DNA of 64,000 bases from contig OZ004613.1 in NCBI GenBank assembly GCA_963924565.1, positions 13,888,001-13,952,000 of the forward strand, read 5' to 3'. This document shows positions 12,767 to 64,000 of this stretch, piece by piece (the first letter of the stretch is position 1; each line of letters opens with the position of its first letter). The notes beneath the pieces were generated by a model. The model was not told the DNA's origin. It did no database searches and saw only the letters and a list, made by a program, of their open reading frames with translations. The DNA comes from Ascidiella aspersa (lineage: Eukaryota). Position numbers and translations under genes: made by a program.

Positions 12767-15700
12767 ATGCAAGGCGCCACACGGTACATCCCGAGGCGCT
12801 ACCGGTCGCTGGTCATTCGCTGCGCCCTCAGCTGCCTGGCTCTCATTCTACTCTACGCGATGCTCTCGGGTGAACAGTCGTCCACTGGCGCCGGACGCAG
12901 CGACGACATGCTCTTCCAGTTCGAGCAGGAGCATCGCGTCGGCGGCGAGGCGGCGAGAGAGGCGGTCTATGATGACCCCGACGCTCTGGATCGGCAGGCG
13001 CTTGCGCCCGGACGCCATCTGGCGGACGAGGAGATGCTTGAGCGGGAACAGGTCGGCGGCAACTTCTCGGCAAAGGCCGAAGCTCTGCTAAAAGAGGGGG
13101 TAATATAGAGTTTAATTTTCTTTTACCAGTACTGCTTTTTACTGTTGAATTATTTATCTAAGTGGACATTAATTCAATCGATTAGCAATTCTTGTGTTTT
13201 AGGTTGCCTATCGGTTTCTTATAGTGTAAAGTTATTTTAGACTGCTAATAGCGCAGCCGAATAACTATAGTCTTTTTAGTGAGATTCGTGTGATAACTAT
13301 AGTTATTTTTTATATAAATTGTCAAATGAATGCTACGGAAACAACGGCGCCGTGAAATGAACAACTTTATTGTCCGATTTTGCTGTCACTCGAAAAATTA
13401 AATATAAACATTTGGTAAAAGCAGTGGTCGCCACAACGTCATGCATACGAATTACACAGTGAAAATTTTCTGTAGAATAACATAAAACACTCCACCAACA
13501 ATATGTTAGATTTGAGCAGGGTAATAATAAAAAGCTACTTGGAGTAAGACTAGTTTGCTAAATATTTTTTTAGAATGACGTGTTAGTCCCACATTCTCCA
13601 GTTTGGTCAAGAAATAATCTTCATTTTTTGATCCAAGTCGATTAGCGCAACTGATTTTACCGCGGTACACTATACTCTAAGTCTAAGGCAGTGGTTCTCA
13701 ACCGGGGTGCCGCGGCGCCCTGGTGTGCAATTTCTAATGCTCAAGGGTGTCGATAAGTATTTGAGAAATTTTAAAAATCTGATTTTTGCTCAGTTGGTAA
13801 ACTTCTTGATACAACTATTTGTGTACGATTAGAATCCATTACATCAAATGACAGTTTCCTGCATGTTTTAGGTTGATTATGTTATCTCAGTTCCATTCAT
13901 AGTGACATTTTAGTAAAATACTCTACGAAAATTCTGAGAATCACTGCTCTAAGGAGTACAGCTCTTATCACTGTCACGCAAATAAGTATAAATCCATTTC
14001 GTGTTCTCCAGGTTTACGAATACTTCACGGAGGACGAGCTAAGGCCCTGGTTCGAGAAGCCCGAACCGGAACCGAACGGACCAGGGGAGTACGGGCGTGC
14101 GGTGAGGGTGACCGACACCGACCCCGAGGTTAAGAAAGCGGTCAAGGCCGGCTGGGACAAGCACGCCTTTAACCATTACGTTTGCGACAAGATCTCGGTG
14201 CACAGAACCATCGGCGATAAAAGAGACAGAGAGTAAGGCTCAGTAGTGAAGACTTTGTTTTTTTAATCAACTCCGGGATTACTGAGCTGAGTTGAAAAGT
14301 AGGATTTTTAGCGCTGTACGATAAGAAAGCAAAGTGGTTTGCTGTAACCCAACTGTGGAAAGTTAGCATTGCAACGCATTTTGATCAGTTTAAAACAATA
14401 AACATTAAGTGCGTTCAAATTACGGTATTAACAGTAGAAAGCAGTGGTTCCAACCTTTATCGCGGCGAATCGCAAAATAGAAGACAGGTTAATAGCATAA
14501 ACAAATTCGAATTTAATTATTTTGAGTCATTTCTTCGTATTTCCCATACGTTAAGAGACACGGGCTTACACAGTGGAATAACCTTTAAATTACATTAAAA
14601 GTATAAACAATCAAATGAATAAATACTATTGTTTGCTTTACCTTAAGGCTTAAGCAGTCAACTATAGCATTTCAACGAAGTATAAAATTAACCGTTATAG
14701 AGGCAGTGTTTACTCTACTTTGTTGTTTTATTTTGTGTTCGCCATGTTAAACAAACACACGCTCAAACGGATCTTTGGCCTGAATTAAAGCCGCGAACGT
14801 TTAGATGCAAAGAGCGAAAATGGCGAAAGCCTGCCCCCGACACCTCGGTGATTATTATCTTCCACAACGAGGCGTGGTGCGCCCTCTTGAGGACCGTGCA
14901 CAGCGTGTTGGAGACCTCCCCCGAAGTTTTACTCAAGGAAATCATTCTCGTTGACGACGCAAGCACATTCGGTAATGAGATTTAGTTTACATTATATGCC
15001 AGCAGAAGAGTAAAATGTGTAATTTTTCACTAAACCGTTTGAGAATGAAGAGAAGGATTTGGACGAGGGGTTGTTAAACTGGGGTCTATCGACTCCTCCG
15101 TGAACTAGTTTTAGGGGGTCCATTAAAGCCCAAGTGAAATATGAGTGTATATTTAGGAAATAATAAATAAAAACAAATAGGTTAACTAAAATAAAACGGT
15201 TTTGCAATGAATGTATTAAGACTCCATTTCACTTTCACATTTTTGGACCGAAATCAGCAGATTTATGAAATCGTTTTGTGTTGTGACGTAAATTTGTGAC
15301 GTCATCTCCGAAAATTTATTGCCTACCGTGGTCCACGCAAGGCAAAAAAAACTTTTAGGTATCCGCGTTAAAAAAAGTTTAAGAACCTCTGATTTAGACG
15401 GCGCAATATGTATCCTAATAGCTTAATATGTTAATATTTCCAATAATAGCTGCCGTTAAACGACAATTTGAAGCCGATGATAAATAGAAATAGTAATCAA
15501 AAATCTCATTTCGAGCTTGGTGAAAAACTCAGTCTTTGTATTTTTTAATGTACATTTGTTTAATGTAAAGGTTAAACGAGGTTGTGATGTGCGTTACGTG
15601 GAGTTTATCCCAAACTAATTAAATATTTATGAAAATACTTTGGCCCGTTGGTTCTAAAAATAATCGACAATAATCGATCGCGAATAAAGTAATTTCTTTT

Positions 15701-18700
15701 AAGTGCATATATATCGACATCATAGTGGCCCAGACAGCAATGAATAATTTATTTAATAATCTTGAAGCCGTTGGCCTTTATCTGCTGCGTTAAGGTAATT
15801 ATGTCATTTGCGGTCAAATCAAAGACAGAAAACCCTCTTTTCTTTGTATATATAATTTTCAGCGGTTTATTTTTTACCTAAAAAATGGGGTTTCGTAGAG
15901 ATGTAAATAGGTAAAACAGATCACCCTCAAACTGGCAAGATCTATACTATTATTTTCACTCTAATTAATTCTTGTTGTTTTTTCCTTGTGACTGTTACGT
16001 TTCACGTACAACAATTAACATCTTTCCATACTGTTGAGTAGAAGATCTCGGCCTGCAGCTGGACGAATACGTCAAGAAGCTGAAAGTTGTCAAGATCGTG
16101 CGACTGCCGGAGAGATCTGGTTTGATCCGGGCCCGATTGGCCGGCGCCGAGGCCGCAACCGGCCAAGTGCTCACCTTCCTCGACTCGCATTGTAAGCCCC
16201 TCGAAAGCAAACGCCAGTTTAGCCTCTTATCAGTGTTGTAAACAAGTCATTTTGAAATGGTCCCAGTCAAATGATTAGTGAAATACTCAAGTCAATGTCT
16301 GGTCTTTTAAAACACAGCAAGTAAAGTCCCAGTCCAAGTCAATTTTAGAGAAACTCCATGTCAAATCACTAATATCAATGTAAAACTATAAACTATTAAA
16401 AATAGGTAAACTCGTCCAATTATGAGCAATAAATCGTCAAAAAACATCTAAAAAGCAAAATGTAGCCATCTAATTGTTTCAAGTGCAAAACTTGAGATAA
16501 ATAGCTAAATTTTAAGAAAACATTTATTTTTAACCAAAGTCCTTTGACTTAATGATTTAAGTCAAGTCATAACACTGCCTTTTATTGCTGAAGTAGTGCT
16601 CGTTTTGCGTTGAAACGAATCATTTTCCATCGGCAAGGAAAAGCCCTTTAATATCTAAATTGTTATTTTGTACACATTTCGAACAAATATAGGAATCCGC
16701 GTCAATCAGCAACCAACCCCGTTTTAGACTTGTCGTGTTAAGTTAGGAATAATCCGCCGCCAACAGAAAGTGATATACATTTATAATAATCGTGTTAGAT
16801 TATGACTATAATTGAATTGAGACCCTTTTGTATTGATCTGTATTCCACTTTTAGACACCTTTTATTTATGCACAATTTCACTAAAAGACGAATTCGTATC
16901 TGTCAGCAAAAGGATTTAGTGATTTGATATTAAAGTAACGCGCAATAGGCTGCAAAATTTTAATAGTCTCTTAATTTTTAATAGTCCTCTTTTAACTTGA
17001 AGCGAGTTCGACTCAGTAACAGAATTAGTCCAGTCTTGTGATATATTTAATGATAGGGCTCCTCGGCTAATTGAACGTGTTTTTAATTACAAATTGTGGA
17101 TAACTTGTCCTCCTCGTGTTTTTTATTAATTTACCTTGTGGCTTTGCGAAGGCGAATGCGCCCCTCACTGGCTAGAGCCCCTGCTAGAACGGATTGCTGA
17201 AGATCCGACCAGAGTTGTTTGTCCCGTCATAGAGGTTATTGACTCGACTACATTTGCGATGAGTCTCACTACTGCCAGGTATTTCATTCATTTTGAAATT
17301 ACATAAAAAGCAAACTCGATTTCAAATGCTATGTATTTGATTTGGTTTATATTATTACATTGTTTGGGTATTAAATGAAACAGTATAAGGTTTTCAGTTG
17401 ATGTTTGGTAAGGGGGTCATATGGATAATTTTATTTAGTGATGCGGTCGGTGTTGGTGCGTAAAACAGTGTAGTGCGTCAGTAAAATTCTATAGATACCA
17501 ATGTTAGTATTTGCAAAAATAACCTACCGGATATTTTTCCAAACTGTAGTGACAATCATACCTTTCCAATCGCTCTCGTATTTTTGCCTTTTTACCAATT
17601 GCTTTCGGCTAGGTAAGCAATGTTTCCGTTTTCAACATCTAATCTTCAACCTAGCAAGCCGCACATGTAAACATGTCGGTTGTAGTTTGTCGCTGATTAA
17701 CACCCCTTTTCTGCCGAAATAAGGTCTGTGCAGCGGGGCATCTTGGGGTGGAATCTGCATTTCAACTGGGGACCCCAAGTGCCCACGCTCGGGGAAAGAC
17801 CCCGCAACGACCAGGCCATACCCTCGCCCACCATGGCCGGCGGTCTCTTTGCCATGCACAAGAAGTACTTCGAATATTTGGGAACATACGACCCCGACAT
17901 GTTGGTATGGGGAGGAGAAAACATCGAGATGTCGCTGAGAGTAAGTTTTTCCATTTTTTGTCTGACATGTGGTTATTAGTCGCCAGAAATACAAAGATAA
18001 AATTCATCTGCGGATAGAGGCAGTTGCACGTAAATGAAAAACAAGGTGCCACCAAAAAGGCGAACTATTAAAATAAAAAAATATAGAAACAAAAACAAGA
18101 ATAATACTATAATAAAAGCAAGCCAATGTAACAATAAATAGCAAGTGTAATTGGCCTGTAATGTTTACATCTCTGTTAATATATCACATTAGGATTAGAC
18201 ATATGCTAAATAAATCTTGTCTGTAACCATAATAAGCAGAGTTATGTGAATTATTATTTAATAAATTTGACAAACTTAATTGATCTTTTAGCAACGCGTC
18301 CCGATTTGCAGTATCACATGTATAACCTAAATTTCAGTATTATTTAGAAATTATGCAATTCATTGAAAGTATTTTTTTTTCTTCGAACGACATAAGACCT
18401 AAATCAATTCAAATAGAAAAACTTTTGTAGATCAAAACGAATAGTGTTGCAGAGCAAAACATATCGGGCATTATTTTGCAATGATAAAAGTATATTTTTT
18501 TTCAGATTTGGACGTGTGGAGGTACTTTGGAAATTCAACCTTGCTCGCACGTGGGTCACGTGTTCCGAAGCAGGGCCCCATACAGTCACCCCGGGGGTAG
18601 CTCGGTGATTACCCGAAACAACAAGCGGGTGGCGGAGGTCTGGCTCGACGAGTACAAGGAGCAGTTTTACAAGCGAGTACCCTCCGCTAGAACGGTAAGT

Positions 18701-21161
18701 TAATTTACTTGTTGTCGCAGGAAGTAGGGGGTTTTAACAATATAAGGAAAATAAACTTTTGTAAAGATTTATCACGCTTAGATGTAGATTATTTGCACAA
18801 GTTGTTTACTGTTTACATCTATGTCCGGTAAACACTCCTTATATGAAGTAAGACCATGAGTAAAATTCAAAAGCGGATAGTGGCTTGAGATGATCATATT
18901 GCTGTTTCAGGGAATATATATAGTTGTTAATGGTAGTGGTGTGCTAAATTTTCAACTCCAGTTACATTTTCAGTTTGCTGCCTGGCCAACATCGTTTGTT
19001 TTAATCAAATAATTGAGGATCCTTTTTAAAAATCACGAAACGAAAAGGTAGTTTATAATAATTGCTTTACAGGCTCTCGCAATAAAGTAAGTATAGGATA
19101 CTTGTGCAAATTACTTACAATACAACACACAAGCCCTTAAATAATTTATGAATATTAAACATTAGTAACATGATGATGCCTTTCTGGTGGGTAAGTAGTT
19201 AAGAATTATTAAGATGTTGTGCGGACCCTTAAAACTTCCGCACTGAGTCCATGTCGCAAGCGTAACTCAAGTTTGAGAATCATAGTTTAGACTAGAGCTT
19301 TTCTCAGCCGTCTTCATTTTCGAATTAGAACAATTATTTGTCCAAACCTTTTATAACACGAATCAAAAAGAGTTGTTAATTATTTAGATTGACGCCGGTG
19401 ACACGTCGCTAAGGAAAAAGCTTAGAGTCGACCTAAAATGTCACAGTTTTAATTGGTACCTCACGAACATTTATCCGGACCTGTACGCTACTCCAAGAGA
19501 AGATATAATCTTGTCTGGCGAGGTAAGCACTGGTTTAAGCATTATAATATCCTTTGTAAAATGTGATATCTTTACTGTTTCCAGAAGAATTTATTCTTTT
19601 GTACTTCATGGTATTTTATTCGAAAAAAAAGTTATATATTTTATTAGCCAATTTTTGTGTTTTTAATCTTTAATGTTCGCAAAGGTTTATGTGGCACACG
19701 ATGTTAATAAAAAAATAAAATAAGGTGGCTCACGGTGGGCGATTAACGATTTTATCGAAAGCTAATAAGGCAGAAGAAATAAAAAAATCCAAACATCGAC
19801 AATTGTTCATTATATTTTTCAGTGGCACAATGGCGACAAAAACGGCAAATTTTGCTTGGACTCGGCTAATCCTGATGGAAAGACTGGCGTAAGGGCCAAC
19901 ATGTACGTTTGTCACGGCATGGGAGTAAACCAGGTAAGTGTGATTTAAAAACCATTGTATTGTTTTTCTGCAGCTGAAGGTCGTTATCATAATTTGTCAC
20001 AGTACCTATGTTTAACACTGTAAGCTTAACAAGCACAGTTGTGTGAATATTTGTCAATTTTGCGAATTGCAATTATCTTTTAAAATGCCTCGTGATTTGC
20101 AGTATGGTATCTAAGGCCTAAAACTATTGACAGAATATCGTCCGAGATCAAAATTGCCTAGCCAACAATACCTTTACAAGATTAAACAGCGTTACAAGTA
20201 CAGCCGAATGTATATATATGTCCTTAATATAATCCATAGAACACAAGGAACTGAGAATTTGCAGTGAGTTATTAATTGGGTTATAAACCTTAGGTCCTTG
20301 ACAATATTAGAGATATTTTTATAGCGCGTGTTGTACTCAAAGCTATACTTACCTTTTTCCGAAATAGGACTTTATATACACGCGGCAAAAGGAGATTCGG
20401 CACAACTTCGTCAACGAGCTTTGCATGGAACCCAACGGTGACTACCTGGTTGCCAACCACTGCGTCTATCCAAAAGGACCGGTTCCAGCACAACAGCAAT
20501 GGGAAATACTGCCGGTAAACATGCGGACTAGAGTAGACCTGATTGATGCAAGTGTATCTCACTTTTGTTTATGTTCTGAGGAGACAACGAATTTCCTGAA
20601 TTGCGCTTTTCATCCAAGGAGAGACTTACCGGTTTCCGAGTTGCTTGGTGGCTGGCACCTGTTTTCCATATATATTTATTTTGCGCAAATTACATTTTTA
20701 ACAGAAACTAGATTGTTACTTAAGCTTTAGCATCAGGAAATAAAATCGTGATGTCAATCTCAGCAGTCGCGTTCGTATTGTACATAATCGGTGTTGTAAT
20801 GACCTAAATGTAAAGAAAAATCCCTCTCAATTTTTAGATAAGTCACTTTTGACTTCACATATCTTTTCTGCTTATCGAACGCTAAAAATCAGACCGCAAA
20901 TTTAATGGTTTAACACTTTATTTTAATGTAAATAACCGTTTTTAAACTTGACAATACTTTAACATTTTCAAAAATTGTAAGTTTTGCTTGTTTAGAGCAC
21001 TCTAAAAAACGCATGCATTCTGACAGGACGGCCATGTGAAACACAAGCTAGCTGACAAGTGCGTGGTGGCGATCGACACCTTGGTGGCCATGCAGCCGTG
21101 CCTTGACCGGCCTTCGCATAAGTGGACCATAAAGCCGATCAACGGACAGCAACAAGCCTGA
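12767..21161 (+). CDS. GALNT: Polypeptide N-acetylgalactosaminyltransferase (GT27 + ricin-B lectin), isoform/copy A, ~643 aa, 11 coding exons
   Basis: Exons 12767-13099, 14012-14232, 14805-14971, 16042-16191, 17152-17278, 17724-17940, 18506-18694, 19388-19522, 19823-19933, 20368-20514, 21027-21161. All introns are GT-AG, phases are consistent, and the total is 1932 nt. The protein has an N-terminal TM anchor ([19 protein letters not shown]), [47 protein letters not shown] (DxH), [28 protein letters not shown], and lectin repeats ([15 protein letters not shown]). The specific orthologue cannot be assigned. Confidence 0.95.
13689..13946. mobile_element. hAT (Charlie-like) MITE in GALNT intron
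   Basis: TIRs CAGTGGTTCTCA / TGAGAATCACTG; 8-bp TSD GTCTAAGG / CTCTAAGG. Confidence 0.75.
15065..15391. mobile_element. hAT-type MITE in GALNT intron
   Basis: TIR-like GAGGGGTTGTTAAACT / AGTTTAAGAACCTCTG; TSD ATTTGGAC / ATTTAGAC. Confidence 0.65.
16231..16577. mobile_element. AAGTC-repeat MITE family member
   Basis: Ends CAGTGTT / AACACTG, TSD CCTCTTAT / CCTTTTAT, many internal (C)AAGTC(A) motifs. Related copies lie near 10480-10640, 34351-34802, 37330-37470, 39120-39456, 40490-40670 and 42190-42300. Confidence 0.7.
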
Positions 21162-22867
21162 GAGGCGGGAACAGAATCGCGCGGAGCTGTGACAATTAGA
21201 AAAAAGTTAGATGGGCCTTCGTCCCGAGGAAAACGCAAGTCTCCTACCTGCGCTGCAACGTAAAGCGTAGAGGCTTGCGGTAGAGCGTCGGAAACGCAGG
21301 CTTGCTGGCGCAGCACAACCCGATGAACGAATCTTGAGACGATTTTCGTACCTGCGCTTTCACGTACTCCTTTACTATTTATTAGCGTCTGCGATTTTTC
21401 AATATCAAGTCTCGCTTTTAGTAAAACAGTAGTTCAGTTGGGCGCTAAGATTACTAGTATCTCGCTGGCAGTATTTGTTATACCTATATAATTTAGCAGT
21501 AAATTTTATGTAATTAAATAAAATAATTTGTGTGAATGCTGCGCAGTGAGTCTGGTCATTCAAGTGTTGTTGATTCGTAATTGATTTTAGGGTTCAACTT
21601 TATGATTTTCAAAGAGATGTATTTATGTCCAAGAAGTGCTTCATGGGGGTAACAATTCTAAAAACGATAAGGGCTACTGGACTAGGTTAATAGGTATGCC
21701 CACACAAACGTTTACCCATCATTTGGTATTATCTCGAAGAAAGGTAATTAGGCCCGACGGACATACTAATTTCTAATCACATTTTTAGACCGTCTTGCAC
21801 TATTCTCACACTTCAGTAGAAAATTGCCTTTGTATTGCATTTTATTTTGCACGCAACATACATTTAGCGAAGCGAAAAACTATACACAATTCCATGTGCA
21901 GCTATAGTTTTATCGTAATACATTCGTTAATTTATAATTCAATTATGTTAATCTGAAATTCATAAATTATATCTACATTGATCGTTACATATGTTTGTCT
22001 CGCAACACTTTGCGAAATGCACCGTGTGGTGTAAAATGCTTCACTTCAATTATTATTTAAGTTATGTTCTGTGATTTATCGTTGTTTTCTCCACGAGTGT
22101 TTTTTATTGTGCTGGATTTTGTTTTTTATCAGATCTCTGTTACTGTACGCGTAATGTAGCGTTTAGTGTGCTGAAAGCAGTGAAGCTATATTTATTTTTT
22201 TTTATTCACATGACCACATTTTATGTACTGCGCCCTGCTATTAGTAGTAGTATTTTAGAGACTCCATACTACTTTTAAAATGTTTAGACATGTAAACCAG
22301 ACACTGAAAATTAACATGGTCGTAACCACAAATTTATTTCGGTTACAAAATAGACAAAGCAAAACGCAGTAAAACTCAAGTTACATTCATTCATCAAACA
22401 TCTGTTCGTCCCCTTCTACATTGTTTTACTTAAAAAAATCCATTCATAATGTTTTCGTGACCATACGTTTCGGGTGCAATATTTGGCAATTTCTTAAGCT
22501 ATTTATTGTTTTTCTTTCTTTAGATCGCTCGTTTTATTTTACTCGTTGCTAGATTTAGAAGCAAAAATAACTTTGAAAAAATATATCATTGTTTTGCTGA
22601 GTTAGACCTTACCATTTACATTTTCATGAAATTTAAGTTTTTCTTGAAAGTGCGTATTGTAGTTTACTTTAGTTACACTTTTTGAAGGTAACATTTTACA
22701 GCAATGTAAATATGTTAAGGAGGTGGAAAAACTCAGTTTAGTCGCGGTATTTGACTAATCTGAATATATCAAAGATGTTTCAGTTTGCAATTAACATTAT
22801 TTAGGTACTACTTTTGAGTGGTATTAGAATTATATGTGTCAAGTAGGACGGTTGGTTTACCTATGAG

Positions 22868-24098
22868 CATTGGCGCCCGCACGGGGGGGCAAGGGCTTGC
22901 CCCCCCTGGATTTTAAAATGCGATTATTAGTATTATTTATAACGGTAATATGTATTACTTATGAAGGTTAAAAATATTATACATTATCCATTGCCCCAGT
23001 GGCGTATCCAGGGGGGGCGGGAGTTCTTACCCCCTTTTTGTAAGTGATATTATCGTTTTTTGTTCGTTGTTTCTCATGGTTTAACAAACTGTTCGAAGCG
23101 GCCTGCTTTTTAAGGTTACACGTCCTAATCTAATGCGAAACCAAAATCGAGCGCAAAACGCCGTTTTTTGTCTTTTGTTTGGTCAACCGTAAACGCTAGA
23201 TAGTTATTCTCTTTCGTTATTTGTTTAGGTTGAATGATTAGTAAGTGTATATTCGACAATTGTCAACGCTAAGTCAAACCTTCTTTCTTTTTTTCTCTCT
23301 GAAAAACGTCGAGTTATACGCAGTATGTTCCTCGCTGTTCGGTCTCTGTGCTAATATCCGATGTTGGTCGACATTTGTTTAACTACATCGACATTTGTTT
23401 AACTGAAGCAGATTTTTAAAATGAGGTATAATGGTGACTGTCGTGCGCGTTTCAAAGTCTCCATTTCTAAGTAATGATAGTTAACGCAAAATTACGCTCT
23501 TTAAGCATACTTAAAGACCACGTGCTAAGTGTGCAATGGACAAAACTTATTTTCCCGCAAACGCAGCTTGTAATTTAGCTGACTTGGCACACAGCTCGGC
23601 GCAGATGTTGCGCTAATCGTGGCATAATAACACCCGGAAAATACGATCTTAGTTTTGTATTGCAGGTGGTGAAAGACGTGCTTGTAATTTAGCGCTCGTT
23701 CCCTTCATGGAACTTGAAAACTGCGCTGCTGATAGTCGAATTATGTGTGATTCTACTACAATTAATCACACATATTTTACGGTCTTAGTTTTTTTTTTTT
23801 GCTTAATGTTAACGATTGCACACCGTGATTTCGCAGCTGGCGCCTGCCAGGAATGTCGACGACGCAGGTGACGCTTTTGCTGGACGTATTTGGCTGTTTC
23901 TGATTAGTTTTGTTATCACGTCTTGCAATCACCATTCTACGACGTCATACTGTCACTGTTTTATGACGTGATTATTCATTAACGTCAGACGAAAAATAAG
24001 GGAATTCCCTAAGTTGAAAATTCAGGACCACCCCGTTTTGATTTTCTGGTTACGCCCCTGATTTCCCCCTCCTGGAAAATTTTCTGCGGGCGCCCCTG
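22868..24098. mobile_element. hAT-type MITE with nested second element (22997-24060)
   Basis: Outer TIRs CATTGGCGCCCGCA / TGCGGGCGCCCCTG with perfect TSD CCTATGAG. Inner TIRs CAGTGGCGTATCCAG / CTGGTTACGCCCCTG with approximate TSD ATTGCCCC / ATTTCCCC. Confidence 0.85.
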
Positions 24099-24329
24099 CC
24101 TATGAGGCAATATCGCTAATCTATTTTAATGGGACCGAAGCTAACATGAGCCTTTTGAATAACCAACAGCCTTTGAATGCAACTCGGTTTGCAGGCTTGC
24201 ATAAAGCGACTAGGTGTATTGGACTAAATTTTGTGACTTTAAACAAAATTTATATAACAAAAAATACTTCTGCCTGCTCCACGCCTGGATATGGGCGAAT
24301 GGCGTCCTGAAATTATATTTTGCATACAG

Positions 24330-27300
24330 GCACGTTCCGCAAGGCGCCTTTGGCTGGGGATTGGAATTTCACTGGGCCACGCAACCCGACAACAAAGGAA
24401 TGGCTATACAGACCAAAACGAAAGACGAACCATTCACGTAAGTTAGTGCAGTGATTGTCAACCTTTTTCGGTATGGTACACCCGTTTTACTATTCCTCAA
24501 AACTTATACACCCCAGTCTATGCAATACACCGAATCTGTAGTAATCCTAATCGGAATAAGGATAAGCAGGGCTGCAAGTATAGGAAATCTGTAGCATAGC
24601 TTTATATAAATACAAAATCATCAGTCACTTAATGCGAGCGGTGCTTTTAAACTTTTTCTGTCAGTGGTGCGAACCGAGGCAGTTTTAGCCTTAATTGTTT
24701 CCATTGCTCCTTTCATAAGCGTATAAACATCCTTAATAGAATTTCTTTTTTGGTTTTAATTTCAACAAGAGCAGAAACTCTTTGCTCGCAAAGTTATGTC
24801 GTGGGCATGCGAACAAGGATGGAAATCGCTTTTTCATTCAGAATCCGGTATTTAGGAATGTTGAGAAGCGATACCCAAATTTCCTCCCGATCTGTGTAGC
24901 AAAAAGGTCTAGGACAATTAGGGGATCCAAGGGCAGAATAGTCTGACTTTTAAACCTTGAGATCATGGCAATGCACTAATTGGACCTTTAGGTAAATTCC
25001 CGGCATATATAAATTGAAAATATTTGCTGAAAGTTCACAAAAGTTAAAAAAATGTGAAAATTAATAATACTTGACCTACCTGAACCTAAACGCTAACCCG
25101 AATCCTAACCCAAATAATGTGCGTTATTATTTGAACGCTAGAGAAAAAGCCCAAACTCTGGTGGGCATAAGATCATTTTTCGTCCGGGGTATATCGAATT
25201 GTTACTTCACACATTGATGCATTGGGACCTAAAGCGTTTATGTAATGATTAAATCAACGCACACTATTTGAGTTAGGGTGCTGGTTATCGTTTGGGTTCG
25301 GGTGGGTCAAGTATTATTGCATTGTTGAAAGACCTGAAAGTTATTGCATTGTTGAAGACCTTAAAGTCTAAAAGTCAGACTTTTGATACTTTGGATGCCC
25401 TAAATGTCGTAGACCTTTTTGCTTGAAACTGCACTAATTTCTAACGGATCGGGTGAAAATTCAGGATTAGTTATTAAACTGTTTAAACTCTGCCTTTTAA
25501 ACCAAATATGATCGTAGTTCAATAAGTTCACTGGTTAAGTAGCCCAAGTTACTCTTCAACATGCGGGCCACGGAATCAAAATATGTGATCCGCGGTGCGC
25601 TTTGTTTTTTTGCCAGCACCACAAACATTCAGTTGCAGGCTTTTGAAATTGCTTCAGGGCATCGTTGATTTGTTGTAACTATATTTTGCTCTAACTAAGT
25701 GTCACAAACGTTTAATATGGATATCATTAAGTTACTATTTTGTGCTGGCAAACCATAAACGTGTACAGCAAAATCTGCAGATGCTTACTTTACCATCGTT
25801 TACGTCGTTTATGTCGAATAGCCACAAAGTCACGTCAAAACAACAGGTTACTACAGGTCAAACTGGTCGCACGATATTATAATATAATAGGAATATTACC
25901 TCACAACGGTCAGTGAGAGGCGGCAAAGTAACGCAACTACTATCAGATAGCTATTTCTTCGGCATACGGTTGAAAAGCACTGAGTTATTGAACAAAATAT
26001 AGGTAACAACAATTATAATGTGGAAGGTCCTATGCATTTTGTTGAATGAAAAATGAATAAATACAGTTGATTTGGTAATGGGTAAAAAACGAAAAAACTT
26101 TTATAGACTGCAGTAAATACAGAGCAACTTATGATGGCCTATAGCGCAATACAACTTTGAAAAACGGTTATTTTGATGTTATAAAGCAGCGCTTCTTAAT
26201 AGGTGCGTAATGGAACATGGCCATTTGTGTGCCGCAGAAAAAAAAACTGAAATAACTAGAGCTCGCATTGGTCGCTAGGTGTGCCACCAGGTTTGTAGGT
26301 GCGCTGGGAGGAAAAATAAGAAACAATGTTTTAAAGTGACCCAAACTCCGCAGTAGACCTTATGTTTGCCCCACTTACCTTCTAGTTAGAGAATGACTAG
26401 TCGTGAGTTGAACTAAGGACGCCAGGTAAGCGATTCCGAATATTTATCGATGTAACAACACTTATTTTAGATCTAATGGAAACGTCAGACAGCCAGTTAA
26501 ACGGTGGGTTTGTAACAAAACTTATGGCCTTTTATAGAACCCCTGTGATGGCTGGACCAGTGTTTGCCATCGACCAAGAGTACTTCTTCAAGATAGGAGC
26601 CTACGACACTGAAATGGATGGAATAGGTTCGGAAAATCTCGAGCTGTCTTTTAGGGTAAGACTAACATACAAGCTAAACATAATGGAGCCCGATTAGGTC
26701 AATAAAAAATCTTACTAGAATATTGAAAAATTCACGATAATAAAAACGTATAACTAGACATTACAAAAGTAATTAAAACTAATTCCAAAAAAGGCCACTA
26801 AAAACAGCCAAGATCTAATATTCCTAAAATGCAGTTGATTATGCGCTGACAGATCTGGATGTGTGGTGGAACAATAGAGATCAATCCTTGCTCACGGGTC
26901 GGACACATTGGGAGGCGCAGGAAGCAATACACGCAGGAAAAAGAGGCAGAGGCTGTCCTCCGGAACAAGATGAGGGTAGCCTTCCTTTGGATGGACGATT
27001 ACAAGTGGATGTTCTTTAGGAGAACCCTGAAGGTTTCACAATATATGCGTATATCATTGCCATTTACGTTTGAAACAAACTTAGAAATTTTTTAACAATA
27101 ATTATTGTTAGCTGTGGTGGCCACTGATCTTCGTAATTCAAACCGAACTAGAAGAACAACTAAACCCTTATATCTATTAGAATTTAGTTATTTAGTTGGC
27201 TTATAGAGGCAAATAAATGTGGCCAGTATAACGTAAATCAATAACTGCATACGGTCAAATAAGTACATATAAAAGTTTGTGAATCTGTTTTTTACCACAT

Positions 27301-30300
27301 AAAACGTTTAGCGTTTAACATGCGTTTACACCGTTGCTGGTCACAAATATTCTGTGCTGCAATGACTTAAGATATTGGCTAGACTAGTGTACTAATTACG
27401 TTTTTATTGCTAAAACTTAGAATGTCGTCGTACAATCTCTGGTTTTAAGTTGCATCGATTAGGTCTTCCGAGCTAAATGACTTAATTTGGACTTAATTTA
27501 TGCTACAAGTTATTTTAAAATTACTCATAAAATTTAAAAAATAAAAAAGGATGGCCAATGGAAGGCCTCGTTTGTCGCTATTCCTATATAGCATGGTAAA
27601 CATCAAAGCTATTCTTTTTCCGCGGTTGTTGTTATTAAATCACAGGCGCGAGAAATGCTGGAGAGAGATGGGGAACCGGACGTGGAGAAGCGCTACCAGT
27701 TGCACGACGACCTGGAGTGCGGTAACTTTCAGTGGTACATGACGGAGGTCTACCCCGACCTGTACATCGTACCCCACGAGGATATCGTGCTTCACGGCGA
27801 GGTACAAGAGAAAGTAGTTCCTATATACTGATAAAGTCTCTCATGCAAAGTGTAAGCGACCTTCATGCTGGAAGGGATCAAGACGCCTCCCGAACGTTCA
27901 ACTTTGCAAAGAGTTTGCAAATTGTGAATCGAGGCAGCCACGCGAAATAAACAAATTATGTTGAATAAATACAAAAATGTGGGAAAACAACGTTTATTTG
28001 AAAAAAAGTGTTGGACTCTTTTATACTCCCTCTTAAGTTGACATTCACCCTAAATTAATTATATAAAGTTTTTTATTTGCCGCAAAACCTCTTTTTGGTT
28101 CTAAAAATTAAATTTACTCTGGGTTACATTTCCACAGTACAAAATGTACTGATATATCATAATTGCATCAAACGCTGACCATTGGGTTAAAGATAATCGT
28201 GTATAGAGAACTGAAGAAACGTTTTAAATCAGTACTTTGTAAGTGTGCCGTGACTCGACACCCCTGTCACAGTTTTATTTACTTCTTAATTGGCGTTCTA
28301 CTTCTTTCTTAATTTCTTGAATATTTTGTTAAATATTTTAACACGTTGGCAATCCAATCACTTTCTTGTGAAACAGGCGAGGTGTTCTAGCAACAAGGAA
28401 TGGTGTTTGGAGTCTAACAACGTGCACGGCAATCCAGGATCTGTAGTAGACGTGGCGCCATGCCATGGTTTAGGCAAGGGACAGGTACTGTACAGTATAC
28501 CTGGAGAATTTTAATAGCTGTTTATTAACAACGCATTGCCTTGGTGGGTAATTTGCTTCGCTGTATACGCTTGCCCAGAAGTAAATCAAATATGTATAAT
28601 ATAGAAAAAATATGAATAACACGGAAAGATGGATACTTATAAATATATAAACGTTTTGAAATAACTTGATTTTATTTTTGTAATTTGTGTTGCCCTAACA
28701 TTTTGATATTTTGTTCTCGTTGTCACTAATTCGGCTGCCTTATCTTGTAGTTTAAAGAGAACGTTCCAGTTTTTAAAATGGATTTAAAATATGTTCTTAC
28801 GGTGTATCCTATGTTTCAGTACTACGAGCTGACAGAACAGGGCGAAATCCGGCAAAACACAATCTCGGAGCTGTGCTTGTCGGCCAAAGGCAGCGAGGTT
28901 TGGACGATGAAGTGCAGGTATCCCTGGCACGACGTACCCGACTCGCAGAAGTGGCTCGTCATGCCGGTAAGTCACCACACGATTATAAACAGCTGGAAAC
29001 TTAACGCGATATCAGCAGTGTTAAAATATTGAGTTTTTTGTTGGGTTTTCCGTAATGACCGGATGTAAAAAAATTGGATTTGCACATGTAAAAAGGCGTT
29101 TGCTGTATCTTCCACGAAGTATTTTAACTGTCGCGCATTGTGAAACCAACCGAAATTGCATTTAAAATATTCGTAACTACACGGGAGTCGGATAATTACG
29201 AGAGGAGACGTCGCAACTACCAAAAAATCAACTCTACTATTTGGTTGCTGCAAGTTGTTCAATGTAAATCACACAGTCATTTATTACAGGACGGCCAAAT
29301 TCTCCACCCGCATACAAACCTATGCTTAACGAGCAATCTGCAGAAACGTCAGGTAACGTTGCTAAAATGCGTCAAGAAAAGCACAAGCCAAGTATGGATC
29401 ATTGGACAAAAGGATGGATACGAAGAAAGTAAGTTTTCGTTTCCAATTTGGCGCTAGGTATTCAAATGGTAAGACATTCAAATGAAAAAGTATGCCCCTA
29501 TTGAGAATACAACACAAGATGTATTTTAAAAGAATGAGATTAAAGTGCAAGCAAGGACAGACTAGAAAACACAACTATATAGCTTGCAGTAAAGTTCGAA
29601 CTCGCGACTATAACTGAGCTACACAGGTTCAGAGGGGCGCTCGTCGAGAAACAACCATAGCACCACCAACGCCTGCTGCATCTTGTTCGAACATGAAAAA
29701 TACGGGATGTTTATCTCCTTCAAACTTCTATGGAAGGAGATAAACATCCCGTATTTTCAGTCAATAAAACGTGCACAATACATAATGTGTATTGTGTTAT
29801 TAAGCCACACCCATTATAGAGTACCTACTGAAAATCCTGTGTTTTTGTACAGATGGCCTTTATTTAAGAAACTAAACTATCACTTGAACTTTGCTGCGGA
29901 AGTGTAATAAAAAATTCGGTCACCTCAGTTTTTGCCTCAATAAGTTAAACAAAGATAAGTCTGGTAAATATACGTTTGGTGAACGCATTTGTTAGTCACT
30001 GCTTACTGAAATTGATACGCGATTGCCTTGCTCGGCATAGCGCTTCAACTATCTCGAATGCATTATTCTTGATCTATAGAGCTGCAATAAGTTACTTAAT
30101 TTTTAAAGTACGCAATGAAGAACAAAATTAATTGGTTTTCATTAATTTAATATATTGTTGTAGGAGTTATTAACTGCTTATTAAACTATAACAGTGTAGT
30201 CTTTTGGGGGTCACAGGCATATTAGCCGGTTAAGTTTGTCGTTTTCATTATGACTTTAGAGATCAACATTGTCATGTTATGTAAAGCATTTATCCATTCC

Positions 30301-30690
30301 GTGAGCAATGCGAGGCACAAAGTGTTGCGCTCAACAGAGAGATAATATACAAATCAAATGTTAAGGACTACCAAACTAGACCCATAGCTATCCGTCATTG
30401 TATTGTCGAAATAAATTGTCAAAAACATAAAATACTATTCATGAAACACAAAATTCAGCCTAATAAATTGAATGCAAGTCTTTCACTTTCCTAAGTCGTT
30501 CAAATTTATCGTTCGGGAGCTGTAACATAATGGAACTTTTTGCACAGGCCCTGTTGAATATGATGCGACGCAGAACGGTACTGATACAGCTCAAGTCGAA
30601 GGTAACAAGCAGTCTGGACAGAATAAGACTGCAACCAACAAAGATTACGTCATAATGTACGAGGAAGGTGCCATTGAAAATGGAAAGTAG
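24330..30690 (+). CDS. GALNT: Second GALNT 3' half (C-terminal catalytic region + ricin lectin + extra tail); probable alternative 3' exon cassette B of the same gene (~698 aa if joined to exons 1-5)
   Basis: Exons 24330-24437, 26538-26655, 26853-27032, 27646-27801, 28377-28484, 28820-28966, 29290-29428, 30548-30690. All are GT-AG, open and in phase. Motifs: [74 protein letters not shown]. No N-terminal GALNT exons are seen in 21162-24329. If the last intron is retained, the frame stops at 29457. Confidence 0.85.
24449..25982. mobile_element. hAT-type non-autonomous element in first intron of GALNT cassette B
   Basis: TIRs CAGTGATTGTCAACC / GGTTGAAAAGCACTG; TSD AGTTAGTG / AGTTATTG. Confidence 0.7.
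24872..25467. repeat. ~600-bp foldback/palindromic element nested in the above
   Basis: Arms GCAAAAAGGTCTAGGACAATTAGGGGATCCAA..AGTCTGACTTTTA and AATAATACTTGACCTACCTGAACCTAAAC..AAATAATGTGCGTT recur as reverse complements at ~25255-25425. Confidence 0.75.
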
Positions 30691-31632
30691 GTTTGGCGGA
30701 TCTAAGGAGAAGCCAGCATAAAACTCTTTTCTACGATAATTTCAACGCGACGTGAGCTTTTATTCTGTGGCGTGTGGATGTAGTAGTATGTCACGACAGA
30801 TTTGAATACGAAGGTGCCCGCGAAAAAAAAGCATTTCAAACCTAATAAACCAAAAAGTTAATGAAGCTATTGTCGCACATTAATTTAAAACGTCAGACAT
30901 CGCCAGATTTGGCAAGCAAGAATAAAATAAGTACTGTGGACTCGATAGTGCAATACGTTGCCTAATCGTAGTTATTGGGCGCTATCTGTCGCGGCAAAAC
31001 TTCCTCGTATAGGGATTTGCCAAAGCGTTTATATTTTACTGCGTAATTTGTGGACGCTTTTTTAAGCCAAACATTACGCACACCAGACAGGCGTGTTGGG
31101 GTTCTTTGGATAAAATATAAACGCAAAATATGTACAGCTGCGATTTTAACCAGGTTTAGCTTGTGTTTATCCATTTAATCGTGGTTAACCTAAAGTAAAA
31201 CAGAAAACAGTTGCAGCACATTTTTTCACTTTAACATGAACATGTGGGTGAACAATACTGGGGTGTTAAAACATTTTTAATTCAAACTGTTTGTGCCAAA
31301 ATGATCTTTCATCAATCAAATTTAAAATGCTATATGCACGGACCTAATTCTAAAATATGTAGAAATTATTCTAGATTCTAGCATAAACCTTATCAAGACT
31401 AAAACAACATTGTCTTTTTGAGACTAAAATAGCAAGGCCAACATTTAACAAAAAAGTTACAGCAAAGGAAATATTTGAGAATAAAGGGTTGTTAATATAA
31501 AGATAGAAAAAATATTTAGTGAAAGGTAGTTTAGTTCGCTAAATTTTTTAAATAACCCAATTGACCTTGCACATAAAACAAAATCATTTTTGTGAAATAT
31601 GCAACATTAAATTATTAAATTTGTTTGTAAAT

Positions 31633-34600
31633 TTAGCCAGATTTTTTAGCTTTTGGAATGCTACATCCGTCAGCGAACTTGGTGTTCTTTGCCGTTATAC
31701 GTCCTAGGTAGGGTGCCATCTTTGAGACGAAGGGCAGTACTGTGCCGTAGTGCGGACTGCGCTGTTTCGCCTTCAGATCATCGACCAGTCCCATCCAAGA
31801 ATCGCCGCTTAAATCCAACGAGTCGAACTCGTAACCGAAAAGCTGCTTGTAGTAGAACGAGTTACGCACGGTCCACACTTTGTCGTTGAGTGTCACCTTG
31901 TTCGGGTTCATAGTCGCGTTGCAGAAAGGCGACATGGGAAAGTCGAACGACTGGTAGTAGGTGCTCGTCATTTTTTGTCCACTCTAAACAGATAGATTGG
32001 GCAGAACTCGAAAAACGCACAAAACTCTACACGACGCGCATCGCTTTTCAGTTAATTCCGAACATTCCTAAACTCATTGGTGTACGCTGGGTCGTTACAG
32101 GTTTTTTTTTAAGGTTTGGTTTGGGTGACCGCTAAGTAGTTTTAAGAGACCGCAAGTGTTTCATTTAAATACCAAAAAGTTGCAAGTCCAAAATTTGGGA
32201 AACCGCTGGAGAAATTTGGGGGACCGTTTCGGAACACCAAGACCTAAATGTTTAGATACCAAATTAAAACGTTTATCTAACTCCAACCCTACCCCTAAGT
32301 ACATCTCTAGCTTTCCTAATAATTTTTACAACCCAAATGCTAACCCCACCTCTCACCCTCCACTAATCCCAAACAGGGGAAACAATCCGGTGCCAAACAA
32401 CGGCACCCTGACGGCGCCGGTCAAACTAGGACGGCCAAACTTCGACATCAAAACGGCCGATGCCAGACCGGTGCCCCCATCGCCCTATTTCTACTACCTT
32501 CATTTTAAGGCGTTATTTGGTCCATTTAGCCTTATTCTGGTGAATTTAGGGCATATCGTGATAAATTTAGGACGTCTTTCAAAAGATTTAGATCTTATTC
32601 TATCGTGGATATTACTGCGTATTTGGCTTTATAATGTCGTTGGTCCTAACGCTATATGGTATGATGGAGTATTTTGCTTTATACATTGTTGCTTTGTGGG
32701 CTACGTCTTATTGCGTGTTCCTCATAAGGCAACGCAAAAAAAACTTCACGTTATAAAAAAGTTGGGGGTTAAATATTCAAAGAGGAAAATATAAACCCCG
32801 AAACACTAATCTTTTAACAATTTTAAACTTTGTTGTAAAAATAATTGATATTTTTTCACTTACGTTATGTATTGAGCCCATTGTTAAGTTGGTCTTCACA
32901 AGTAACTATTGTCAGTGAGACAAATTAATAAACCGGTGAAAGTATTTTAAGTCATTTGAACGAATCACTAATTTTTCCAAAAAATTCAGCTAAAAATAAG
33001 TCAGTCGAAAGCAGTCTAAAGTCACCTCAAGTCATTGGAATTTTGAACAATTACAATTCTCGAAGGGTTACGGAACACAATTGTGAAGCAAAATCAACTT
33101 ACGTCTACGTAAGAACCCACGAAGCTACTATTAGTCCAATCCTGATCCGCCGCCGCATCGTGCAACGTCTTGTACAAAGCCCACAGCCTGTCGATCTGAC
33201 TGTGGTGCAGGGCAAAAACAGGATCAAAAGCCGAATAGGAGACGCTCAGCATGCTGTACAAGCATAGTTTGTCTCCAATCGTGTCTTTCCTCGTGCACAA
33301 GCAGTTGTGGATCTGAGTTTAGGATTTCAAAGGACTTGTTGCAAATTTCTTATAATGCTCGGTTGAAGTGTTAAGGTGTTAAAATCACAAACTTACAAGT
33401 ATAGATCTTAAGACTGTTTATTTATTAAAACAGATAAAACATAAAATCATATAAAAAAAAATAGAATCTATTTGAATAAGAAACTGATGCCTTATAGGCG
33501 TAATATATATATTTCTGTAAGATTTTAAGAAATGATTTTATGTTTTATCTGTTTTAATAAATAAACAGTCTTAAGATCTTTGGATACGAAGACAAGAATC
33601 TTTCTTTTACAATTTATTGTCCTCGGGAGATCCTTACTTTCTAAAGTGTTTCAACTTACAAGTATATTAACAACAACAAAAAAACTGCACAAAATGCGAT
33701 GGTATAGGTCAGGAGTGGGCAACGTGCTGCCAGTGGGCCGCATGCGGCCCTTCACCTTCTTATAGCTATCTTTCCCTAAATAAAGCTATGAGTGTGCACC
33801 ATGTTGGGACTTATGCTCTATCAGTTTCCTGTTTGAAGTGCGATGTAACCCATAGGCTACACCGCAACACTAATGCATTTCAACTCAAATGGGAAGCATC
33901 TATTACAAAACAATCTTCATTCATAAAGTTCTACTTGTGTCACGTTGCTACGATAAAGAATTGTTTTGCAACAATTACACTTATCTAGTACGGTCAAGGT
34001 GTAACAGACTTTTGCCACGCATATTGACTGAGATGTTGTGTGTGTTTAACAGCTGGTTTTGAATTAAGGCTTTCAATTAAATTGTAGACTGAGCCGATCC
34101 CTACAAGAAAGGCGTCATTTCTATTGTAAGAAAAGTTATTTCCGAATTCACAAGTAGACAGCATTAACAAAACTGCCGTAGTTGCAGCCTTGTAGCTCAT
34201 TAGTTTTTTTTAGTAAAAGCTGAAAATATGAATTAGTGTTTATTTGATGTGCGGCCCTCCTGTAAGCATTACTTTTCCTTACTGGCCCTTGTGTTAAAAA
34301 GGTTGCCCACCCCTGGTATAGGTGAAGTAAACAAAATTTATAACTATAAACAGTGGTGTAATGACCTAATTATTGACTTGATCAAGTGCTTCTTTAGTCA
34401 CTGGTTTTAAATGGCTCGACTTGACGTTAAATATTTTTATACAAATGACTTGACTTAACTGACGTCTTTTGCACTTACAAACCTAAAGCACAATATTTTA
34501 CTTATAACTGAGTATTTCTATTAAATCATGTTTGAGTAAAGTTGGGTTATTTAGCTAAATATGTGGATTTCCCTACGTAGTTGTTTTCAATATGGTTGCT

Positions 34601-37600
34601 TATCATTTGCTTACTAATATATTGCTCAGCTTCGGACGAGTTTACCGGTTTTATTAGTTTAGCTTTTTTTGTGGTGAATGACTTACTATTTATGATAATT
34701 ACTGACTAGGTCTTTGCTACGAAAACATGATTTTTTGTCTCTATTTTTCTTGTAACTTTACTAGGTCTTAATTGTTTGTTAAATTGTCCGTTTGCAACAC
34801 TGATGCATTAAATCTAATATCGTATACCAAACCATAATCAATGAGTCAGGAACTCTTAATCCGAGTGTGAGTTTGCTAAACTTGTTATAAAAGTTTCAAC
34901 CGCCAGAATCACCTGGTTATGCGGAGACTCGAGGATGTTTTCCATTGTTTCATATGTGGGATGGTTTAGGGAATAAATGACGCTTCGAAGCAGAAGGTCA
35001 TACCAGGATAGGCCCTTCGGCGATATCCAACGGTAAGTGTGCCTAAGAACGGAAAGTTTTGCTTTATTGACTTGAGAAACAAAGACACTGAAGTGCACTT
35101 GATGCACTTGTGATTTTGTGCATAAATTGTTGTTTAAAGTGACTAAAACACAACTAAACTAAATGTGAAACGCGAACGATTGCACAATGAAATATACAAA
35201 TTGAACATCATGTGTTCGTTGTTTATTCCTACGATTTGCTGGAAAATCATACAAGATCCGATTGCAATAGTTAAAAAATAAACATAAATAGGAAAGCAAG
35301 CGTTTTTATCCACCCGCTCTTAGTGCGACTTACGCGGTTTCATTCATGATTGGCTTATGCGATGTCATAACTGTGGAGTAGAACGGGTTCTTCACGTATT
35401 GGTTTATGATGGGATCGAATACTTCCCCAAGGCGGAAAAGGTCGGGCAGATTTTTCCAGCCTTTCTCAGTCCAGTCCCAATAGGGGAATCCAAGACTTTT
35501 GTCTTTCAAGTATTTGTTCATTCCTATAATTTGAAGTAGCTTTAAATTTGTGACAAATTTTGAGCACAGGCCCGTGATCGGCCGCCGTATAAGTCTCGAA
35601 TAGCTAATGTCGTTTTGTTTTTTGTGTAGTTGGTAAAGCAAATTAAAAAATTATTTCTTTAACAAAGTCAAAACAAAGATAACTAACGATTTTTCCGCTA
35701 CAACTTATTGGTTAAGTACAATAAAGTTATCCCAAATTGTTATGTACATTTAAGTCTCGCAATGCATACAATTATCTAAATTTTAGCATGCTTGCATTCA
35801 TGCATATTTGTAATATTTCCTAAAATTACGTTTCGTGTCACACTTAAGAATTGTTTGAGGTACAGGTTTGCTGTTACATGCAGTTAGAGAACCACGATTT
35901 AAACTATATGTGGAAACCATTATGAGTCTTTCCTACTAACATTTCCGCATATTGAGCTAACAATTTTTGCCACCGTATATACCGCCTGCTTATGTGCACG
36001 TCGCCAGATCTTACCCATTTCCAATTGGACGATTATAATTCGATGCCAGGCAAGAAACATAGGGTGACCGTGCCAGCTGCAGTGCCCGTTCGAGTGGCCT
36101 GCGATGTGTTTGTACCATGGGCATTCGAAGGGCCAACCGTGCCATCTCACAATGTACTGAAATGAAGTGTAACATTATTCCCTTTTCAAAAGCTTTTTAA
36201 AGGTCGTATTTAAATTGAATAAAAACCAGGCTATACTTACTGCCAGTTATAAATTGTATCGTTTTACCCCAAAAATGATACGTTTGGAGCCATATACACC
36301 TTGTGTAAATACTATATTTTTTTATTTTTAACAGACTTGAACCCCTATTTAAACTTACAAACGGCGTCAGGTTTATTGATTTGCTTTAAGTTAATATAAG
36401 AAATAAATATACTGCCGAACTCAAACAGCGGTCTCAGAAACACTTAGGGTAAAACAGACGATTGTGCCTCCCATACCCTAAAGCTAAAATGTGTAAACGA
36501 ACTTTCTATAGTAAAGCTGAAAATTGTCGACCGTACATGTCTGGCCCGAGCTCTATAAAGGGAGTAAGGCGTTTAAGGAGTAATCTTCGTCGGTTACTGG
36601 CATATAACATCTGAATTATTCGCCGACTTGTTGTCACGTGTACTGAATGTTAACCGTTTTGGTGCTAAGAGGACGTACCGTTGAAAGTTGAAACAATCTT
36701 TAAAAATAAAAACTCAAAGTCTAGAAATATATCCAGAAACACATACCAGAAATCCATCAGACGAGTTGTCGTTTTTAAACTTGGTATAGGCTTGTATGAG
36801 ATCGTGTTTCTCAGCGTCTGTTAGAATTCTGATATTCTTTCGTATCCTATAGGCTAAAAACAACGTCAGGCTTACCAAAAACATTTTTGCAGTAAAACAT
36901 GTCAGCGTTATCAATATGCATGGCTTTGCTATGAAGATTTTACCATCAGAGATACAACTTGTTATACATACGGATAAATAATAATTTCTTGCCAAACAAA
37001 ACTTTTAATTTGCTTTTTGAGACATGTTTGCTTTATTTTTTTCTTCATGCAAACTTTAAATAAACTGAAGGACGACATTTTTATTTTAAAGATAAACTAG
37101 TTAACTACAAATACAAACTTACGTTTAGTTACGCTGCTACAGGTCCGCGATTCACTCCCCGCTCCGACGCATCGGCTGTTCTTGGTCACTCCCTCGTGCT
37201 TGCAGATTCTCTCCCTGGTCTGTAAACCTCCCCAATCAGAAGTGATGCAAGTGGACCAAGTGCCCCAAGTCGTCCAGGAAACTAGTAAGCAAGGCGGTTA
37301 CTATTACTGACCATATCGTAAATAGCTTGGAAAGTGTTGTAAGGAAGTCCCAGTCAAGTAATTTGTAAAATAACTTAAGTACGTGTTAAGTATTTCTGTA
37401 TAATTCACAAGTTAAGTTCCAGCCAAGCCATAGTTGTAGCCAGTCAATTCCAAGTCAAGTCCTCTTCTTAAAAAAAATGTTAAACACTTTTAATTGTTAA
37501 ACTCGCTCGATTAGAAGCAATAACTCAACTAAAAATAACAAAAACGCAATATTAAGCAAGAAAATTGTTTAATGTAAAAACAATAAGGTAAATAACTTAA

Positions 37601-63813: not shown

Positions 63814-64000
63814 GTAAGTTCGCACAGTGAGGAGTGGGTACACGATTTTATATGCGCAATTTCAGGCTAGCCGATGTGAGGGAGTCACTGATATAGCCGA
63901 AATCTGCGTTTTACCTCCAATAATATTGCGTCTCTTTTTTTGCTGGGCACTTTAACTATAAATGTTTTAATGGTAATGTCATAGATTCGACGAACAATCG

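Follow-up and report, generated by a model that had tools for sequence, protein, structure and literature searches.

The 64,000-nucleotide stretch of the Ascidiella aspersa genome analysed here (assembly GCA_963924565.1, contig OZ004613.1, positions 13,888,001 to 13,952,000 of the forward strand; hereafter the window) carries a tunicate GALNT4-like gene of the GT27 family of polypeptide N-acetylgalactosamine (GalNAc) transferases, nearest to the T3/T4/T6/T12-like members. It is probably a single gene in which shared 5′ exons (the N half) are followed by two tandem 3′ cassettes, A and B, the second of them predicted to be retuned. We hold the shared-exon architecture itself with high confidence. 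Five shared exons (12767-17278) precede the six exons of cassette A (17724-21161) and, 3.2 kb farther on, the eight of cassette B (24330-30690); the two cassettes are homologous, are entered in the same phase, and each has its own stop and poly(A) signal. What the N+B product does is less certain; B keeps the fold and the metal ligands of a GalNAc transferase and has lost its canonical motif.

Organisation of the gene

The spliced readings of the window are both free of stops and give proteins of 643 residues (N+A) and 698 residues (N+B). An AG acceptor precedes each of the 19 exons, and a GT donor follows all but the two final ones, which hold the stops. The exon-5 donor (17278) is in phase 2, as are the acceptors of A (17724) and B (24330), which also agree in register; A and B are entered inside the same arginine codon, and the junction aligns without a gap. 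A sequence-only reading of this DNA had described a second set of eight intact exons behind the stop of a complete GALNT, coding for the C-terminal half only, with a homologous phase-2 entry and no indel, and these data bear it out on both counts. Its statement that B keeps every splice site holds for the AG and GT dinucleotides but not for the intron positions: four later positions are common to both cassettes, while B differs by an extra intron (24438-26537) inside the counterpart of A1, by one intron placed about three codons before the matching one of A, and by an additional tail exon. Within the window the B half shares 120 identities over the 310 residues of the A half (39%). The G+C content is 0.62 at third codon positions of the B exons and 0.36 in the B introns. 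Only two GT2-family matches occur on the contig, both inside this gene.

The arrangement of A followed by a headless B is not an assembly artefact. Exons N5, B3 and B6 each have one copy in the genome, the nearest matches of B3 and B6 being A exons. On unique contigs of one DNA run (X1), depth is 47-60 over the N, A and B pieces alike, as expected for single-copy DNA with an N half that is not doubled. The 1.2-kb repeat of the spacer is bridged by none of the listed short-read contigs, and continuity there comes from the assembly and from the orthologues. The spacer (21162-24329) had been described as devoid of N-half exons and as holding UTR-like sequence and nested elements, and this is confirmed: tblastn with eight N-half queries found no N-half similarity in it (best E 0.97), in a search where a distant shark query picks up four true N exons with E values of 1e-10 or lower, and target duplications mark the elements. 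The outer one (22868-24098) has a perfect 8-bp target duplication and the inner one a 7/8 duplication; both are presumably hAT-like, by the target-duplication rule. The outer end, at 24098, lies 231 nucleotides before the B acceptor, and contig depth indicates a very high copy number.

Orthologues and conservation

The same pair of proteins is annotated in two other genera. A search with the shared region retrieved the RefSeq isoform pairs XP_076818442.1/XP_076818443.1 of Clavelina lepadiformis and XP_078485798.1/XP_078485799.1 of Ciona intestinalis, in both of which X1 is N+B and X2 is N+A. X1 and X2 are identical over their first 333 (Clavelina) or 320 (Ciona) residues and part at the switch arginine of the window. 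X2 matches window A at 72% (Clavelina) and 64% (Ciona), and X1 matches window B at 68% and 64%, against 39-42% in the cross comparisons. CAK8686099.1 is a further Clavelina annotation of N+B. Four more 90% clusters hold N+B proteins, with seven members of 666-730 residues on contigs of 2353-2723 bases; these contigs, known from their proteins and sizes alone, leave no room for introns and point thus to spliced RNA. The UniRef Ciona model F6TXS7 fuses the first five A exons to exons 7 and 8 of B, which places A before B in Ciona as well. This mixed model is probably a prediction artefact; of note, the later exons are in phase 0 in both cassettes, so that in-frame A/B mixed products are possible.

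The best full-coverage matches of exon A1 are found in Clavelina (73%), Ciona (67%) and Styela (64%). In Styela only A was found, and in the profile search the B forms all fell within a single 50% cluster. No other B-like family appeared among the best 150 of 18,751 profile-search matches, none of the 80 loci of a metagenome scan (identity at most 54%) belongs to this orthologue group, and a word search with B exon 3 alone gave no match. Over four matched lineages, 152 columns are invariant in B and 138 in A, which supports the view that B is as conserved as A and would be under long-term selection. With the orthologous pairs and the common switch residue, the earlier proposal of one N-terminus joined to two selected 3′ halves is supported.

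The active site and lectin of the B form

Residues are numbered as in human GalNAc-T2 (T2), and counts refer to seven B rows and 31 non-B rows of the alignment. Isoform A has, from its translation, a type II membrane anchor, a stem, a GT-A domain and a ricin-type lectin; it carries DxH, H359, the AGGL and WGGEN motifs, F280, W282 and F361, and the D-H-N-Q residues of the lectin alpha repeat. Its orthologues in Clavelina and Ciona match the Pfam families PF00535, PF02709 and PF00652. By sequence, isoform A is a canonical GT27 member, for which GalNAc transfer is predicted.

Isoform B combines retained and replaced positions. D224 and H226 (in a shared exon), F280, W282, G308, E334, E337 and H359 are conserved in all seven B rows, all of which have replaced G309 (by A, S or P), L310 (by A, C or V), W331 (by I), G333 (by S) and F361 (by G, A or M). 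G330 and I331 are present in every B row, and the changes there look fixed rather than scattered. W331, G309 and F361 are conserved in 31/31 non-B rows; in a wider survey, W331 was present in 300 of the 318 proteins that could be parsed by pattern (out of 399); the exceptions number 18, of which 14 are B-type and not mutually independent. The Pfam match to Glyco_transf_7C (PF02709) is lost in the four B proteins scanned and present in both A proteins. At the lectin alpha site, the asparagine is replaced by glycine in 7/7 B rows, the aspartate is kept in five and is glutamate in two, and the histidine is kept in three, which leaves no canonical sugar site. A fold model of Clavelina N+B shows the GALNT fold, with a pLDDT of 80.2 and TM scores of 0.90 to 6s24 and 0.91 to 6h0b; Pfam likewise supports GT-A and ricin-lectin domains in B. 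B should not, then, be filed as an ordinary GalNAc transferase, and the former description of the locus as a source of two Golgi enzymes becomes doubtful, as B lacks W331, G309 and F361, three residues that nearly every other GALNT in the retrieved set keeps.

The known roles of these residues come from published work. In PMC6994419, W331 figures as a key gate-keeper of catalysis, linked to the flexible loop; the same passages place G309 against the N-acetyl group and assign contacts with the sugar hydroxyls to E334. The +1 pocket is attributed to F280, W282 and F361, with W331 in the -1 pocket, in the relevant part of bioRxiv 2020.06.25.171371. The donor preference of human T2 was reprogrammed by I253A/L310A, as reported in the corresponding section of PMC7276986.

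All B forms carry an acidic C-terminal tail, with 10-19 D/E among 30-52 residues. In the window this tail depends on exon B8, a putative exon and the least certain part of the model, as only 3-6 of its 47 residues match the orthologues; its composition resembles that of the orthologue tails, and reading through B7 instead would give 660 residues. The tail is tyrosine-rich in one B subgroup (7-11 Tyr amid acidic residues), a pattern which we take to resemble tyrosine-sulfation sites.

History of the cassettes

The tree of the C-terminal halves groups the B forms (support 100/100), the A forms (100/98) and A with B (96/90), apart from three paralogues of the same genome and from vertebrate T3/T4/T6/T12. 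The N halves group by lineage and not by cassette (one A-type with two B-types, 100/99). The intron position at which the cassettes are entered is common to A and B and differs in the three paralogues examined. The B stem measures 0.93-1.19 changes per site, and the B terminal branches resemble those of A. B would thus have been born by an ancient internal duplication of the 3′ half, and would have undergone one burst of change followed by constraint under purifying selection. We are unsure of the date: the duplication may be older than the Styela lineage if the tree position is right, which the long B stem makes less secure.

Proposed mechanism and alternative explanations

By the proposed mechanism, exon 5 would be joined to the proximal A acceptor and the transcript cleaved behind A, at the signal of 21513-21522, giving N+A; read-through, with splicing of exon 5 to 24330 and skipping of all six A exons, would give N+B. 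These steps are drawn from the anatomy of the gene and from known clusters of 3′ cassettes. The two products would share Golgi targeting and two of the three manganese ligands. B would still bind manganese and the uridine diphosphate (UDP) sugar through the retained H359 and E334, while its N-acyl pocket (G309, L310), its acceptor pocket (W331, F361) and its lectin alpha site would be reshaped. RNA pairing of the docking/selector kind was sought between intron 5 and four regions, and the best duplexes fell within the range of 15 shuffles. The argument from acceptor strength was rejected: the weak AAG acceptor pointed out for A in the sequence-only reading is not specific to it, the constitutive exon-5 acceptor ending in AAG too.

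RNA reads came from one run with the same species label, of which about 6% was read (7.8 million reads). Depth is zero over 16578-20501, 26388-27041, 27696-29003 and 30312-30965, and sparse reads fall on exon 1 and on the A untranslated region (UTR), which, by these reads, may run beyond that signal at 21513-21522. No splice joint lies in the gene among the 15 shown (352 more were unshown), and A is uncovered too, which makes the run uninformative on B. The listing of RNA records gave none for 24200-31200.

Several observations weigh against the proposed switch and a retuned B. No junction read was obtained here for either cassette, and most coding exons have zero depth; the X isoforms of RefSeq were predicted automatically, with read support that is not visible, and no A/B pair of the same species is found among the proteins on mRNA-sized contigs. 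No docking/selector pairing rises above shuffles. A grouping of B with the paralogue at C3:34.24 Mb is not rejected (p-AU 0.10), origin from A being favoured. One B subgroup also alters A307, N335, R362 and Y367, and the alignment behind the Clavelina fold model is rich in canonical GALNTs, which favours a canonical fold. Given the gate-keeper role described for W331 in the passages of PMC6994419 that treat it, its loss also fits inactivity.

This last point leads to the activity of B itself, for which the predicted outcome, an active enzyme with a different specificity, has about an even chance. The same splicing could instead yield a pseudo-enzyme that binds manganese/UDP-GalNAc or glycoproteins in the Golgi or endoplasmic reticulum, with a regulatory, chaperone or scaffold role, to which we give a somewhat less than even probability. 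The replacement of W331, G309 and F361 in every B row and in none of the others, the B-type majority among the proteins of the survey that depart from W331, the lost Glyco_transf_7C match and the further drift of one subgroup all speak for it, and human T18, of very narrow activity in the sections of PMC8472655 devoted to it, is a precedent for a divergent motif. H359, E334, E337, F280 and W282 are however kept throughout B, and mostly fixed replacements suggest a new constraint on the site; the retention of H359, the third metal ligand, and of E334, along with this fixation, is why a retuned B is favoured over a pseudo-enzyme. A bolder version, that a second glycosyltransferase evolved inside a GALNT gene, with the front half that binds metal and uridine retained, an enlarged N-acyl pocket, a new acceptor site and another donor sugar or a tunicate-specific O-glycan, seems unlikely; in it, the naturally enlarged pocket of B is likened to the engineered bump-and-hole GalNAc transferases.

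Ascidians trans-splice many mRNAs, and B might be expressed headless, from its own promoter or by a spliced leader at 24330, as a soluble lectin-like protein, the joined models then being artefacts. An in-frame Met in exon B1 (24399-24404), present in 5/7 B rows, could start such a product if B were trans-spliced, and junction reads are lacking in this species. Yet conservation is strong ahead of that Met (27/36 and 26/36 over B1), complete N+B frames occur on the mRNA-sized contigs of four 90% clusters, and B keeps disulfide cysteines and sequons with no signal peptide to go with them. We regard this explanation as very improbable, although a headless B could be a minor extra product. Hardly credible is the idea of B as a full gene in its own right, with 5′ exons missing or collapsed in the assembly, or as a partial duplicate in decay. 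The unbridged spacer repeat would allow it, and whole-gene GALNT tandem pairs do exist in this genome (C1:24.37-24.39 Mb). Against it stand the undoubled N depth, the single N5 copy, the same headless join annotated in two other genera from independent assemblies, and a stop-free B as conserved as A.

Comparison with known systems

The direct orthologues are the RefSeq GALNT4(-like) X1/X2 isoforms of Ciona and Clavelina, with the same N half, switch residue and A and B halves, annotated automatically under one generic name. Splice variants also occur at gly-5 and gly-6 of Caenorhabditis elegans. In Drosophila, PGRP-LC, CG42235 and Pip, a Golgi sulfotransferase-like protein, likewise carry common 5′ exons ahead of duplicated 3′ cassettes of several exons each. 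These cassettes are chosen in a mutually exclusive way coupled to polyadenylation, according to the parts of PMC6191721 and PMC9013439 that describe them. Pip has ten cassettes of 2-4 exons (same part of PMC6191721), against two, of six and eight exons, in the GALNT gene. The claim that the present architecture is unique was thus overstated, the more so as the isoforms are already in automated RefSeq annotation. Unlike in Pip and PGRP-LC, the cut crosses one GT-A active site, between DxH and H359, and, unlike in the PGRP-LC/Pip type of control, no docking/selector pairing was detected.

PGANT9A/B of Drosophila is a GALNT whose splice choice alters specificity, as is proposed for the tunicate gene. 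The relevant text of PMC6115407 has PGANT9 swapping about 30 lectin-alpha residues, whereas the tunicate gene exchanges 310-365, including the Gal/GalNAc-T motif, the flexible loop, the linker and the whole lectin; the same text leaves the splicing of other GALNT members to new specificities for future investigation. UGT1A (PMC9013439, in the portion that deals with it) is similarly one glycosyltransferase locus that makes several enzymes from a variable and a constant half, but as a mirror image, with variable first exons under separate promoters and a constant C-terminal half.

GalNAc-T18, a separate vertebrate gene, has Tyr for Trp at the W331 position and a chaperone role, whereas tunicate B has Ile at 331 together with the changes at G309, L310 and F361. 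This Y-subfamily member is the GALNT with very narrow activity to which the sections of PMC8472655 cited above refer. No description of the tunicate switch or of a B-type site was found in the full texts searched (few subscription journals, no supplements), nor, within the same scope, any switch exchanging half of a GALNT active site and the whole lectin.

Features of the window and neighbouring loci

The exons and other features of the gene are collected in Table 1. The A poly(A) signals ATTAAA and AATAAA overlap at 21513-21522 and are followed by a GT-rich tract. B intron 1 contains a nested inverted-repeat element (24898-25423; arms of 67 and 63 nucleotides), and the last B intron a perfect 25-nucleotide hairpin (29697-29757); high contig depth suggests that both are repeats.

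Table 1. Exons and other features of the GALNT gene in window coordinates (conserved or altered residues numbered as in human T2)
Feature	Positions	Strand	Evidence
N1, shared: start codon, cytosolic tail, transmembrane helix, stem	12767-13099	+	44/111 identical to Clavelina, 38/111 to Ciona
N2, shared: stem and start of catalytic domain	14012-14232	+	spliced reading, orthologue comparison
N3, shared: GT-A core	14805-14971	+	50/56 identical to Clavelina and to Ciona
N4, shared: DxH metal motif at its end	16042-16191	+	spliced reading, residue alignment
N5, shared: phase-2 donor, the switch point	17152-17278	+	single genomic copy (genome search), next best 46-57%
A1: canonical AGGL and WGGEN motifs	17724-17940	+	spliced reading
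A2: H359, F361, flexible loop	18506-18694	+	spliced reading, residue alignment
A3: linker	19388-19522	+	spliced reading
A4: lectin alpha repeat, canonical D/H/N/Q	19823-19933	+	residue alignment
A5: lectin beta repeat	20368-20514	+	spliced reading
A6, coding part: lectin gamma repeat and stop	21027-21161	+	spliced reading
Likely A 3′ UTR	21162-22463	+	sparse stranded reads, depth 0.9-1.5, in 21156-22463
Nested non-autonomous transposons, 8-bp target duplications	22868-24098		contig depth 10^4-10^5
B1: phase 2, A1 register; F280 and W282 kept	24330-24437	+	27/36 to Clavelina B, 26/36 to Ciona B, 11/36 to Clavelina A
B2: G309P, L310V, W331I, G333S; E334 and N335 retained	26538-26655	+	ungapped match to human T2 303-341
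B3: H359, R362 and Y367 kept; F361 to G	26853-27032	+	residue alignment
B4: linker	27646-27801	+	spliced reading, orthologue comparison
B5: lectin alpha repeat, D to E and N to G	28377-28484	+	residue alignment
B6: lectin beta repeat	28820-28966	+	38/49 to Clavelina B; nearest genomic match A exon 5
B7: lectin gamma repeat, then the beginning of the acidic tail	29290-29428	+	spliced reading, orthologue comparison
B8 (inferred): acidic tail, two N-glycan sequons, stop	30548-30690	+	AATAAA at 30844 and 30921

Directly downstream of the GALNT gene, on the opposite strand, lie tandem tyrosinase-like genes with repeated Cys-rich modules (31633-45812), with Pfam Tyrosinase matches at 41750-42214 (E 4e-8) and 35330-35650 (E 2e-4); exons similar to them occur near 57911-58306 on the forward strand and 63472-63861 on the reverse strand. 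Elsewhere in the genome, a divergent GALNT paralogue (C3:34235000-34244100) has Phe in place of W331, Ser in place of A307 and Val in place of L310; its lectin alpha repeat is non-canonical too, and it is likewise a candidate for altered activity. Two complete T4-like GALNT genes stand in tandem at C1:24371000-24393000; they were ruled out as a second case of a shared N half, each copy having its own.

Biological meaning

The gene would be a natural domain swap, in which the anchor, the stem and half of the active site are identical and the acceptor pocket, the catalytic loop and the lectin differ, and its A and B forms have persisted together in several ascidian orders. The gene may serve to test the roles of W331, G309/L310 and F361, the natural use of other donors by the GALNT scaffold and the regulation of O-glycosylation by pseudo-GALNTs, and Ciona, where both forms are annotated, is a tractable model for this. 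Splice control of glycosyltransferase specificity, which in PGANT9 concerns a 30-residue loop, would thereby extend to half an enzyme, and this in the sister group of the vertebrates.

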